Positions 2,220 to 45,605 of a stretch of 64,000 nucleotides of DNA are shown here, one piece after another. The stretch covers positions 72,230,001 to 72,294,000 of the forward strand of contig OX597828.1 of assembly GCA_951406725.2 (NCBI GenBank), read 5' to 3'. The notes beneath the pieces were generated by a model that worked only from the letters and a program-made list of their open reading frames with translations, was not told where the DNA came from and did not search any database. Both the position numbers and the translations under genes were made by a program. This DNA comes from Octopus vulgaris (lineage: Eukaryota). Numbering within the stretch: position 1 is the first letter of the stretch; the number at the start of each line of letters is the position of its first letter.

Positions 2220-2490
2220 TATTAATTCGAGACAAAACCACTATTTTGCAAAACAAACAAGGAAAGACTTAATCAATGCATAAAAAGTTTTAATATAAAG
2301 AAATAAACCGCCACTACAATCGTTTCATGTCTTCAATGACTTTCGTCAGGTGGATTTTCGATCTCCTAATCTGTTTAATTTATGAAGCGATTGTAGTGGC
2401 GGTTTATTTCTTTATATTAAAACTTTTTATGTATTTATTAAGTCTTTCCTTGTTTGTTTTGCAAAATAGTGGTTTTGTCTCGAATTAATA
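2220..2490. repeat. Foldback element with ~108-bp inverted arms (Penelope-type pLTR derivative)
   Basis: 2220-2328 is the reverse complement of 2382-2490 with few mismatches; ~53-bp spacer. Confidence 0.92.
2311..2353 (-). ncRNA. Minimal type-I hammerhead ribozyme motif
   Basis: Minus strand: CCAC CUGACGA aaGUC-auugaa-GACau GAAAC gauu GUA^ GUGG. Stem I CCAC/GUGG, complete core, short stem III. Confidence 0.8.
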
Positions 2491-2505
2491 TTATATAATA
2501 TTTCC

Positions 2506-2709
2506 TCTGGCACCTGTGTCGGTGGCACATAAAAAGCACCCACTACACTCACGGAGTGGTTGGCGTTAGGAAGGGCATCCAGCTGTAGAAACACTGCCAG
2601 ATCAGACTGGGCCTGGTGCAGCTTTCAGGCTTCCCAGACCCCAGTTGAACCATCCAACCCATGCTAGCATGGAAAGCGGACATTAAACGATGATGATGAT
2701 GATGATGAT
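2506..2709 (+). mobile_element. SINE family C 3' part with (GAT)n tail
   Basis: ggcgttaggaagggcatccagctgtagaaac...catgctagcatggaaagcggac followed by (gat)n; many copies in the window. Confidence 0.85.
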
Positions 2710-2959
2710 TTTACTATAAAATTGGATTTAATCCTAAATCTGATTTTTTCCCTGTAAATTTGGATTTATTCCCTAATATTTATTATTATATATATATATA
2801 TATATATAATCAAAATAAGCAACAAGAATGACTCCTGGTATATATATATATATATATATATATATATATATATATACACATATATAACATATATACACAC
2901 ACACACACACATACACGTGTGTGTGTGTGTATATATACGTATGTGTGTGTGTAACTGTA

Positions 2960-40344: not shown

Positions 40345-40680
40345 GGTAAAGACTCTCTTTGGTCACAAATGACCAGAGGATTGGACCTAGAAAGTTACCC
40401 TCCGAGGCACAAGTCCAGGCAAGGTTGTTTATGGAAGACCAGCAGTCGCCCATGCATACCAGCCTCCCCTCTCCATGCCACTGATGTTATCCAAGAGAAT
40501 GGCAATGGTCAATAGAGCTTGGCACCAGTGACATTGCAACTCATTTCTACAGCTGAGTGAAGTGGAGCAATGTGAAATAAGATGTCTTACTCAAGAATAC
40601 AACATGCAGCCTGGTCCGGGAATCAAACTCACAACCTCACAATTGTAAGCATGACCCTTCTCTGAGCCATGCACCTTCAC
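40345..40680 (-). mobile_element. tRNA-derived SINE (family B-related), near full length
   Basis: gggaatcaaactc is a reverse B box; body matches the 23685 copy. Confidence 0.8.
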
Positions 40681-43600
40681 AATATGTATGTGTGTATATA
40701 TATATATATACATATGTTCCAGTATATATGTAATCCGTAATTGTTAGTCAGAGGAGAAAATATATTATTTTGTATTGCTGAAAAGTTTTTTGTTAGGACC
40801 ACCTTTTTTTTTTGGCTTAGCCAAGGTTGTTTCTGATAAGTCTTCAGCAAACTAAAATATATTCTCTGGGACTGGTGGTTATGCTTAAACATGCTGACAG
40901 ACACTCATAATTCTTATCTGGAGTTCTCTAATCTCAGTGGCCTGACCTTGTTCCTATGAAATTGTCACCCTCAAGAATATATTCCAATACACACACATAA
41001 ATATATTATAAATTATACATATAATGTATGTATGTATATATATATATATATATATATATATATATATATACATATATATACATATACATACATATACATA
41101 TATATACATACACACACTTATGTACATATATATATATACATATATACATACATACATACATACATATATATATATTTATACATACATACACACATGTATA
41201 TATATATATATATACACATAGGTGTCTCACAGATGTTTCTGTTCCACGGTCAACTGTTGGCGGTGACGCACTAAACTGTAGACTAGAAGAATTAGGTTGA
41301 ACCATGTTCGACATTCAGTTTGTCCAGCTGTTGTTTGTTTACAGAGAAACTGCTGAAAAGAAGAACCATTTCCTTGTCAAGTTCTGCGTCTTGTGTTCCT
41401 CCTGTTTTTATCCACCAGGGTTCATTAGCTTCCATATGGAATCATATGTCGTAGTATTCTGGAAATATTCTAAATATTTTTAACTAAATGATAATGTGAT
41501 GTTTAGTATGAAAGTAGTAACCAAATAACCATTTCTCCTTTTTGAATTTATTTAACAAGATGGCCACAGCATGTAGATGTTGACTCTTTCTTTGACTTCT
41601 AGGTTTCGGTGTCATTACTAGTATTTGTCAAATATTTTATATTTAACTGTCAAAGACTTCTAAAAACCCAAAATGATAATAATTATCATGGCTTGGATTT
41701 CTAACCACGAAGTCTTAAGCTGGACATGTCAGTACAAACATTCTTTAATTAGTTTGAATTAATTGATATCCACATTAACGGAATAGATCAAATGAATGAT
41801 GGTATTTACAGCCAATAAGTTATTCCTGATGTTGTTCTGCCCAAGACGTCTGACCAATATTTCGTTTGGTTTTAGCTTTATGAGAACAGCTGTTTACTTT
41901 AAAAGCAATCTATTTCAAATTTATCCAAAAACGATGGAATGACAGCAACTGCTAAGATATTTTTTTCTATATTTGTTGAAATCTCAATTTAACACAATCC
42001 AGTATTATTTCCTCTTAGCTCTAAAATGTGATGGATTAAAAAAACAAAACAAACCCAAAAACACTTGTTGGTTCTATTGATCTCTTTAACAATCAAATCC
42101 TATTTGTTAGCTTCACTGTGTGATTGATGAAGAACTCCTGTTGGGTCTATTGATTCTGTACTTTATTTCTAAAATATCACCATATTTGGTGCTGTGCTCT
42201 CCCAGGATGCAATACCAGGTGTTCTGCCTGAGACAGAAATCGTGCCAGACTAAATGAATACTTTGCAATATCTAGTTTGATCTTAGCAGGGTTCAGCTTT
42301 CATCTTGCCCCTGTTGGGTTGACAAATTATGTATGAAGCGCCACCAAGTGGTTTTTCTATTCTATAAATATTTAACTTTGTGCCAATAACAGAAATCAAT
42401 ATTATGAACAGAATTTTTAATTTCTAAGTCAAACAGAATAATATTTCAAGAGTTTATGGAAGAGAGGTGGGGGAACAGTTCTAGTATCTGAGGCAAATTG
42501 CCAGCACAGAAGAACCTGTTGTGAGGTAGAATCTGTACCAAGAAATTTTACAAATAATCCATAAAAATGTAACTTATATTAAATTATTGTTTTGGTGTTA
42601 GGGGTTAAAACCATTTTATTTTTCATATGGGTATTTTAGAGACTTTGTCAACAAGTGGTTTACAAGAGTGAATGCTAGTGAAATTTTGTCTGTGAGTAAG
42701 GGGTTCCTCACCCCAGAGACTCGAATAATGGTGATGTACAATAATGACTTGTTTGGATGGTTTTAGTGCAATGATTTATTTTCTAAATTTGGTCAAAAGG
42801 TGAATAGGAATTTGTCTTCAAGAGAAAACTGACAAACCATGTCTTTTAGGCAGTTCTGGTCACTCTCAGTGGTATTTTCTTCCTGAAATTGTATAAAACC
42901 TCTCTTCGCATACAAAATACAAAGATGCATTCGAATCTCCAAATTTGAATTCTATGATGAATTCTTCAAATAAATTTGTAATTGGTCAGTATTTTTTTTT
43001 TTTAATTAAGTGATTTGTCTTTAAAAAGTCATTCACACACACATACGCACTTATGTACACACACACTCTCTGTCTCTCTCTCCCTCACGCACGTCCAAAC
43101 TCTCAAACTACATACTCACAGAGTCTTAGTGTGTCTTCCTTATAATAATTGCAAAAATTCTCAGGCTTTAAGTCCAAAAATAGAATTATTCTATTGACCT
43201 CTTCAATACCTCATTGTCACAGCAGCAGCACCAGAATTGGACAAATTTGGGAGCTTGTAATGCTGGAATTCTTTATTAATGACACATACATTAATCATCT
43301 GTGATTCAAGAAATGAAGAGTCTTATTATTATTATTTCTTTGGAGAGATTAAAGAACATTCTCTCCAAACAATTACACTTCTACCTATATTGTATTATCT
43401 TTATATCTATATGAAATTCTATGGAGTCTAAGTTATATTTAATATATATATGAGCATATATATATATATAGATGTGTATATATATTTGTTTTGTTTACTG
43501 TTTGTATGTCTCATTGTTACTGCTGATGTCATTATGGTGTCTGTGGAATTAAGAACGTCTTTCAGGAAGACATTCTTCCTAAACAACTAAACAATGTCTT

Positions 43601-45420
43601 CTCCAAGCAGAAATCATTCTTCTGCTTACATCTAATAAAACAGCTACAGGGGCAATCCTTTATTTACATAAAGGATTCCTCTATAAATACATACGCACAC
43701 ACACACACATATAAACATAGTCATCTAAGAATCCGTAAGTCAGAAAAGATATGCACTTGTATATTTACCAAAGAATGGTTGTATTAAAGTGTATACTATT
43801 ATAGATCCATTATGGCAAAGCCTATCAATTGGTTTTATACTGGGTATTAAAACTGGATGTTAGATAACAGCATGGTTAAGTAATACCACATGCTCTTCAG
43901 AGCTGGCAGGTTTGGTAAAATATTGCAACTGCTCTCATTTATATATGTGTATATGTACTGTATCCACTTTATATCTTTGTTAGACGAGTGTTTTCACAGA
44001 CACCAAAATGGTACAACAAAAAATTCCAGTGACTGACATATTTTTATTGTTTTCACCATTCTTTTGGTTTGTATTGTGATCTTTGAAATTATTTCTTTGA
44101 TTAGAAATACACAATTTTTTTTTATTAATTTTTTTCCAACATTTTTTTTCCCCTTCTGAAGAAAATCTGCTGTATTTATTATTTGATAAACTCCAGATTA
44201 TTTTTTTTTAATCAAATACAATTTCATTAAAAACTGTAAAAAATTGGCATGATTCTTCAGAGGGGTAAAAGAAAAGTGTGTTTCCCTGTTATTTGCTCAT
44301 GATTGGTTTATTTTAATTATTGAAAATAATATTGTTTAATTATTGTGTTAAACAAGCCTGTTTATTTAAGATTTATTCCTGAAATATTTCAAACCCAAGA
44401 TTTTATGATTTGTGCAATAGAAAAATCAAAATTGATTATGTTTAATATATTCTTTATTCATCTAACTCAGACAAAAATGATTCTATATCTTCAATATACC
44501 ATGACCAAAGCTATGTATATATATATAATATATATACACTATACACGCACACACACGTGAATATAACAAATGTATAACACATAAATGTAGCTATTACTAT
44601 TATTTTTACAATGATATTTAATTTATTTGTCTTAAATATCCAGGTTTGCTTTTTGTTTTTCATTCTTCCTAGTTACCATCTTTGGTAACTTTACTCTGGT
44701 GATCTTCTTTGATCCATTTTGAGTTTTTCTTTTTTTTTTTTAAATTCAGAAATCCAAATTATAAGAAATCAGTTATAAAAAAATCTCAGACACTCTGTTC
44801 TGACTGGATTTTCAGATTTTGGTGAAAATATATTCCTATAGGTTTAATGATAGCCACAACGAGTCTCTCCTATAATTATTGGCCGGTCAGTGTTTTTCTA
44901 ATTAATTAAAATTATTTGTCAAATTTTTTTTTTTTTTGGAGACATTCCAAATACAAAGTGACATTAAAAGATGAAAGAGTATTGGTTGGTCAGTTGGTAA
45001 AGAAACCAGTATTATTATTATCTATTGATGAAGACAGACTTAGCGAGTTAATGGTTAATGACAGGAATAAATGTGGATTATCAATTGGTAATTACCAATA
45101 TAGTGTAGACTGAGAATTGTGTTCTCATGAAGATTTGATTGAACTGTGATGAGTATTGACTTTTAATCATTATAAATGTTTATTTTGTGCATTTGTATTG
45201 AGACCAGTGTCCTGTCTAGAGGTATATATAAAGACCACTGTCTCATCTTGTGGTATAGTGTCCCATCTCGTGGTAGAGAAGATACTTATGGAGTATAGCA
45301 GGTGTTATGTTACTGGAAGGGTCAAATTATTTAGTTCTCACACAGGCAAGCACATAAGTGCAATAGTTTGTGCTTGGATCTAAGAGGTGTGTGTGTGTGT
45401 ATAAGTGTGTATAAATTGTT

Positions 45421-45605
45421 TGAAGTGGTGTACAGATTTTATATTTTAAGAAAAAGGAGGTAGTCAGAATTTTGGATAATTATTCATCTGATATTTTCAT
45501 CTCGTTTCAGAGATTCACCAGGTATAGGAATATCTGAAATGAGACGGAAGTGCTAAGTAAATAATTATCCAAAATTCCGACTATCTCTTTTTTTTTTTTA
45601 ATATA
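45421..45605. repeat. Foldback element with mutated hammerhead core
   Basis: tagtcagaattttggataattatt / aataattatccaaaattccgacta arms; minus strand CUGGUGA AUCUC-ugaaac-GAGAU GAAA. Confidence 0.85.

Follow-up and report, generated by a model that had tools for sequence, protein, structure and literature searches.

Hammerhead-bearing foldback repeats in an Octopus vulgaris genomic window are pseudo-long terminal repeat ends of Penelope-like elements, with short copies of one family likely derived from spliced RNA

Opposite-strand pairs of minimal hammerhead ribozymes stemming from truncated Penelope-like elements (PLEs) have already been described (Cervera & de la Pena 2014, PMC4209133), and the same work reports the U3-A8 swap as a natural hammerhead variant. 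In Drosophila, Penelope carries its start site and an intron within the pseudo-long terminal repeat (pLTR), and most transcripts are spliced (PMC2377424); intron retention is treated as general among PLEs, and left without explanation, in PMC8557442. In vitro work on PAc, a Poseidon element of the anole, established that two internal start sites of reverse transcription define the tail, that both target strands are cut and extended, and that the ribozyme, which is protein-assisted, is dispensable for insertion (Frangieh et al. 2024, PMC11167929). For the octopus, the repeat annotation of PMC13282606 lists active Penelope families, without foldback or ribozyme detail in its results and methods. 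Here we analyzed a window of 64,000 nucleotides of the Octopus vulgaris genome (contig OX597828.1, positions 72,230,001 to 72,294,000), in which a sequence-only reading had reported six hammerhead-bearing elements and taken them as signs of a dense set of small non-autonomous derivatives of PLEs. All five families to which these elements belong are the hammerhead-bearing pLTR ends of PLEs, joined upstream to PLE open reading frame (ORF) sequence, and their head-to-head pairs probably originated when the PLE enzyme primed cDNA on sense RNA from each of the two ends left by target cleavage.

The six elements were all located where they had been reported, five as inverted repeats (2222, 16174, 17168, 38301 and 45417) and one, at 35190, as a solo copy. 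The expected number of families, about five, was also recovered: A (element 2220), B (16174), C (17168), D (35195) and E, which unites 38303 and 45421, about 75% alike. Element 2220 goes as far as about 2781, its tail being split off by a 200-bp insert at 2504-2709. In each foldback the hammerheads are oriented outward from the centre; the two ribozymes of one foldback lie on opposite strands, and their dimerisation in cis is impossible. Feature coordinates are given in Table 1.

The copies within the window are, by themselves, weak evidence for hammerheads. A strict structural scan retrieved only 17234-17279(-), joined by 35288-35322(-) once the descriptor tolerates C at core position 4, and shuffled controls reached the scan count in 7 of 100 cases with the canonical core and in 1 of 100 with both cores (the two-hit case), while under a second scan descriptor they reached the window count in 22 of 200. 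The Rfam scan of the window returned microsatellite noise, with no hammerhead family among the best 150 of 311 matches. Such results, together with the long inverted arms, are what speaks for regarding the elements as miniature inverted-repeat transposable elements (MITEs) or foldback DNA transposons with hammerhead-like motifs arisen by chance. The family majorities, in contrast, constitute strong evidence. Majority lines computed over the arms of each family (A 52, B 53, C 112, D 52, E 37) reveal a minimal type I hammerhead in every one, with a conserved core, paired stems I and II and a short stem III, the window copies being partly decayed. Stems differ in sequence among families and yet stay paired, as had been remarked from the window copies. 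The core is canonical and identical in 47 of 52 arms of family A and canonical in the majorities of C and E, whereas the majority line of D has C at position 4 throughout and that of B is the U3-A8 variant. The proposal of a hammerhead in each element thus stands at the level of the family majorities (37-112 arms), with the core in all five, and is weakly backed at that of the strict window scan, where the one-copy result is close to chance and the two-hit case exceeds it. The core of 16174 had been misplaced: positions 16313-16319 are out of register and lie in stem II, the in-register cores being 16306-16312 (decayed) and 16228-16234(-) (intact U3-A8). In the right arm of element 17168, the GAAA box of the hammerhead (17506-17509) is lost.

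By eye, stem III is palindromic or near-palindromic in five families (for B in loci L395, L403 and L388; for E in L116, L118 and L122), matching the expectation of the dimer model, and the palindrome of family E has mostly been lost through CpG-type decay. Further D-like repeat families, with other apparent changes of the hammerhead core, are found at the centre of L178 and in the flanks of L151, L221 and L315, which suggests that the host genome contains many more PLE ends.

To link the families to coding sequence, each family was traced upstream and PLE identity was assigned by motifs and tblastn, the clade labels resting on motifs. The linked ORFs are intact for A, intact in relatives for D, and decayed for B, C and E. 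For family A, one longer copy containing an ORF start, then used as query, led to loci in which the ribozyme, the pLTR end and the tail lie directly 5' of open ORFs of 820-850 aa. These ORFs display DKT, a CxCx5C linker, CxxC and CxH in the endonuclease (EN) and GIY-YIG-type motifs at the C terminus, with TA targets, in agreement with the Hydra clade, their RWK-like motif reading KWK. Six copies of family B share an upstream extension, two of them running into a decayed Hydra-type endonuclease frame, and the Hydra label of this family derives only from EN similarity to A. Long copies of family C extend into a Poseidon-type reverse transcriptase (RT)/GIY-YIG frame with the Penelope/Poseidon traits, namely DKG and no Zn-finger linker ahead of GIY-YIG; among 30 loci selected by this frame, the hammerhead lies downstream in 27 and a tRNA-like head in 25, and no intact ORF occurs among 150 scored. 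Both D and E show the DKG and CX2-5CxxC linker of the Neptune clade. In D the 5' truncation varies among copies, and D-like pLTRs, which flank a Neptune ORF at 87-89% (L289), are 81% identical to a young 1008-aa family with the C-at-position-4 core. Two copies of E run into a decayed Neptune-type linker and endonuclease.

The PLE origin proposed earlier is hence upheld for all five families. The reading as small non-autonomous families mostly lacks support, D and E being ordinary 5'-truncated 3' ends of variable length. The PLE anatomy of a pLTR, an inverted 5'-truncated copy and a one-sided tail was measured in A and C and recognized by inspection in B and E, D being solo. Inversion breakpoints differ from copy to copy and the tail sits on one arm; these properties, with the target-site duplications of family C, indicate PLE anatomy and exclude MITEs, in line with the earlier opinion that a MITE label would be wrong. 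Instead of the symmetric terminal inverted repeats, fixed ends and fixed target-site duplication of a MITE or foldback DNA transposon, we found an asymmetric tail, a variable centre and a splice junction. Contiguity with RT/GIY-YIG frames and the conservation of cores in five unrelated families complete the case; the ORF links by themselves refute this explanation, and we assign it a negligible probability.

Two candidate associations were rejected along the way. The PLE ORF next to the copy of family A at L042 turned out to be that of another young family rather than the partner of A, and two family C ribozymes 5 kb apart, considered as a pLTR-ORF-pLTR unit, are independent insertions. Other PLEs came into view as well. 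A young Neptune-type family (L286-L288) encodes a 1008-aa ORF, is arranged in tandem units spaced by about 6.17 kb and has a C4 hammerhead as in D. A very young autonomous family (L161-L166; C5, C1, C2, C7, C3) has an Asn-rich ORF of 1312 aa and copies that are nearly identical; they are inserted head to head in (TA)n, and their hammerhead-like motif has C rather than A at core position 9. The head-to-head arrangement with a single tail also recurs, on the kilobase scale, in a young autonomous family.

Family A records the splicing state of its templates. An exact search with a 37-nt ribozyme pattern gave 280 matches (control 0), of which the first 30 by position represent 22 short insertions. 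A precise GT-AG splice junction was observed in 20 of these 22, one being unspliced and one cut past the junction; 21 have an inverted partner and 17 end within 8 nt of one 5' end. In five foldbacks the exon junction is present in both arms. By comparison, all 12 distinct ORF-linked long loci displayed retain the intron acceptor, and at locus L255 the two exons are parted by a 1,095-nt GT-AG intron that ends 9 nt ahead of stem I. Each of two sequence subfamilies comprises long unspliced and short spliced forms, which argues against a single spliced master. Contrary to the earlier view of A as a non-autonomous family, its short copies are best read as likely run-off copies of the spliced RNA of an autonomous element, the splicing being deduced from DNA.

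We propose the following sequence of events. Reverse transcription would start at two internal sites delimiting the tail, by analogy with the anole PLE in vitro (PMC11167929). The tail of A lies just 5' of the ORF, so that, if the mRNA is spliced normally, some 250 nt would separate it from the likely cap, and an enzyme primed there would run off the template and leave short, intron-less, dead-end copies. One run-off cDNA for each end of the break, the two being joined mid-way, would generate a foldback whose tail is independent of arm length, while long copies would require unspliced read-through RNA, with its start site 3' of the whole ORF, and would keep the intron. The ribozyme would be a passenger in foldback copies, and its cleavage would depend on dimerisation or on assistance by a protein. 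In 39 foldbacks of A, the tail was found on the longer arm in 15, on the shorter in 14, on equal arms in 5, on both in 4 and on none in 1. The inverted arm could alternatively arise by snap-back (self-priming) of cDNA on one template, possibly antisense RNA, a model already put forward for rotifer PLEs in PMC3846280, and the palindromic junctions of family C, which have a short hairpin of the head at their centre, leave room for some snap-back. This route, however, predicts a fixed relation between tail and arm, at odds with the 15 versus 14 above, and an antisense transcript of the unspliced element cannot yield the sense splice junction borne by A arms, on both sides at five loci. Spliced short copies and a length-independent tail favor two-end run-off on sense RNA over the published antisense self-priming, which we consider improbable as the general origin of the arms.

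In family C, the ORF stop is shortly followed by a segment resembling A and B boxes, then by (AAT)n, the ribozyme and the tail. When this head was compared with 27 genomic tRNAs of six amino-acid types, the best partner was tRNA-Arg(TCG), with 38 of 53 columns and a score of 38 against a shuffle maximum of 24; an Rfam search with the head gave no tRNA match, and relaxed ARAGORN calls were too noisy and went unused. Some octopus SINEs (short interspersed elements) are of tRNA-Arg origin. Octopus tRNA-derived retroposons were reportedly described by Ohshima and Okada in 1994, and the octopus SINE name 'Twinhead' did not turn up in the papers listed by a literature search. Exact patterns of family C number 735 for the head and 1004 for the ribozyme. 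Among 30 head-selected copies, the ribozyme lies downstream in 23, and 27 stop no more than 20 nt upstream of the pattern (19 of them at 12-20 nt, the head start), the other 3 extending further. Such a stop point would be expected if the head is where an RNA begins, whether that of an RNA polymerase III (Pol III) passenger or that of a pLTR start site, or if a hairpin drives the stop; on the proposed mechanism, the tRNA-Arg-like segment would mark the RNA 5' end. Target-site duplications of at least 10 bp occur in 18 of 30 two-armed loci versus 19 of 870 mismatched pairs, after examination of 55 loci, four of which were set aside for ambiguous tails and the rest lacked two arms. At L353:1000-2700 (C2:2.7345-2.736 Mb), about eight units of some 216 bp of the C ribozyme end are arranged head to tail, in a retrozyme-like fashion.

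These properties also bear on a different explanation, in which A and C are established non-autonomous families, a spliced mini-PLE and a tRNA-headed Pol III short interspersed element (SINE), whose short copies are transcribed on their own and borrow PLE enzymes. Fixed 5' ends and high exact-match counts in both families are compatible with it, as are, for C, the alignment to tRNA-Arg(TCG) above shuffles, the ends near the head in 27 of 30 copies and the single tandem array. The C head, however, is also embedded in the autonomous 3' untranslated region (UTR) in 25 of 30 loci and finds no tRNA match in Rfam; the depletion of T runs in the C unit is weak (4 in about 2.4 kb, compared with 26 in the 8.1 kb of ORF sequence, in counts that omit one of 10 loci for its wrong bounds); its RNA is neither stranded nor provided with ends; and the spliced copies arose in parallel in both A subfamilies. 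We therefore hold this explanation to be rather unlikely, though ahead of snap-back. A feature by which copies could become independently transcribed passengers, namely the tRNA-like head, occurs only in family C; the head is a possible sign of a SINE-like passenger, putatively transcribed by Pol III.

Several observations weigh against two-end priming on sense RNA and its extension to family C. In family C, a small hairpin forms the centre of some junctions that are perfectly palindromic (L292, L310, L311, L319, L321), as self-priming would produce. In RNA-seq of a C-carrying species, 4,001-6,100 reads per 11.5-12.9 million fall on C, equally in both directions and with no pile-up of starts or ends, as in passive read-through; the depth step at the head recurs in DNA contigs, and these reads provide no evidence of own transcription. 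About half of the tail count (19/39) came from a score-ranked rather than a positional sample, and the ORF links of B and E depend on 2-3 decayed loci each. A Pfam search of full ORFs gave no RT family, and the GIY-YIG match was weak and confined to a single fragment (E=0.0013), so that protein identity as well as clade labels rest on motifs; a PDB sequence search with the A ORF likewise returned low-complexity matches only. The cDNA intermediate, transcription start, cleavage and RNA splicing are all putative. Twelve long C loci showed no 5' pLTR ahead of an ORF start.

Two-end priming on sense RNA nonetheless appears to us the probable origin of the head-to-head pairs. We advance with less assurance, as a tentative proposal that may well not hold, the broader scheme in which spliced mRNA would yield only short run-off foldbacks and unspliced read-through RNA long copies, explaining the introns of PLEs, and in which a Poseidon lineage would have captured, within its pLTR, a Pol III promoter derived from tRNA-Arg and spawned a SINE-like passenger served by the enzymes of PLEs, not of long interspersed elements.

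Table 1. Coordinates of the PLE-derived features in the window.
Family	Feature	Positions	Strand
A	Left arm: spliced pLTR of Hydra-type PLE, up to the family's common 5' end	2222..2387	-
A	Minimal type I hammerhead, canonical core; one stem II change versus family majority	2311..2353	-
A	Exon 1 with its splice junction at 2363/2362; site of 1,095-nt GT-AG intron in long copies	2362..2387	-
A	Right arm, 5' truncation within hammerhead	2382..2503	+
	Later 200-bp repeat insertion with GAT microsatellite at its end; separates family A arm from tail	2504..2709	.
A	One-sided tail; equals 5' UTR directly 5' of ORF in full-length elements	2708..2781	+
B	Left arm; intact U3-A8 core 16228-16234, stem III mutated	16172..16268	-
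B	Right arm and tail; hammerhead decayed (16303-16351); 3' end of old Hydra-type PLE	16256..16423	+
C	Left target-site duplication of 12 bp with a single mismatch	17156..17167	+
C	Left arm; B-box half of tRNA-like head at about 17334-17370	17168..17372	-
C	Intact minimal hammerhead; sole window copy detected by both strict scans	17234..17279	-
C	Right arm: (AAT)n, hammerhead, tail 17575-17604; Poseidon-type PLE 3' end	17373..17604	+
C	Right target-site duplication	17605..17616	+
D	Solo 5'-truncated 3' end of Neptune-type PLE; hammerhead 35288-35322, C at core position 4	35190..35376	-
E	First foldback, old Neptune-type PLE end; arms 38301-38488 (-) and 38485-38649 (+)	38301..38649	
E	Hammerhead of first foldback	about 38368-38407	-
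E	Second foldback; core 45515-45521 mutated/decayed	45417..45596	

Elsewhere in the window, exons of a dual-specificity phosphatase gene occupy 7856-12313 (+), with weak DSPc matches at 9418-9843 and 10613-12313, and none of the six elements overlaps its frames. A weak match (E=0.011) to the C-terminus of a Hydra-type endonuclease at 58047-58283 (-) is possibly another decayed PLE fragment. AT/GT microsatellite blocks at 52800-53900 and 55741-56234 dominate the inverted-repeat and Rfam miRNA listings and represent noise.

Both the keeping of introns in PLEs and the formation of head-to-head repeats are stated as open questions in PMC8557442 and PMC3846280. Family A offers a natural experiment on them: its young insertions run into the hundreds, and their DNA reveals the template strand, whether it was spliced and where copying started, while the source ORFs are intact and suited to biochemical work. 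In family C we see a candidate for a passenger with a tRNA-like head that uses PLE enzymes. Automated libraries would misfile such repeats as MITEs, SINEs or unknowns. While hammerheads in inverted, truncated PLE ends are known, the spliced foldbacks of A and the tRNA-like head of C look new: our literature searches listed no paper on PLE foldbacks with a splice junction or on PLE derivatives headed by a tRNA, Repbase, Dfam and supplements, which may hold these families, lying outside their scope.

Compared with known systems, family C resembles tRNA-derived SINEs in its A/B-box-like head and in the 5' ends piled at that head, and differs from them in that the 3' UTR of a PLE surrounds the head and that the insertion signatures are those of PLEs, not of long interspersed elements. 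Metazoan non-LTR retrozymes (PMC7229834; bioRxiv 10.64898/2026.07.22.740005) are likewise non-coding hammerhead units related to PLE pLTRs, whereas those of the window occur as inverted pairs or singly and not as tandem, circle-derived arrays; tandem hammerhead units are absent from the window, the one array of C lying elsewhere (L353). The PLE hammerheads of PMC4209133 share with ours the minimal type I fold, the palindromic stem III region, the U3-A8 variant, opposite-strand pairs 100-700 bp apart read as truncated PLEs and, in Drosophila Penelope, an intron end adjoining stem I; spliced genomic copies, tail/arm statistics and a tRNA-like head are not reported in the results and discussion of that paper. 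Endonuclease-positive (EN+) PLEs (Craig et al. 2021, PMC8557442) show the same 5' truncation, inverted 5'-truncated copy and one-sided tail, the (TA)n targets, a transcription start site and intron in the pLTR and the motifs of the Hydra, Neptune and Penelope-Poseidon clades, their tail measuring 30-40 nt versus about 75 nt in A, where the intron is 1.1 kb. Anole PAc (PMC11167929) differs in clade and host, and its description does not include run-off copies of spliced RNA. Rotifer Penelope (Arkhipova et al. 2013, PMC3846280) is similar in its head-to-head inverted pLTRs, 8-10 bp target-site duplications, palindromic junctions and Asn-rich ORF inserts; antisense self-priming was proposed for it, whereas family A points to spliced sense templates.

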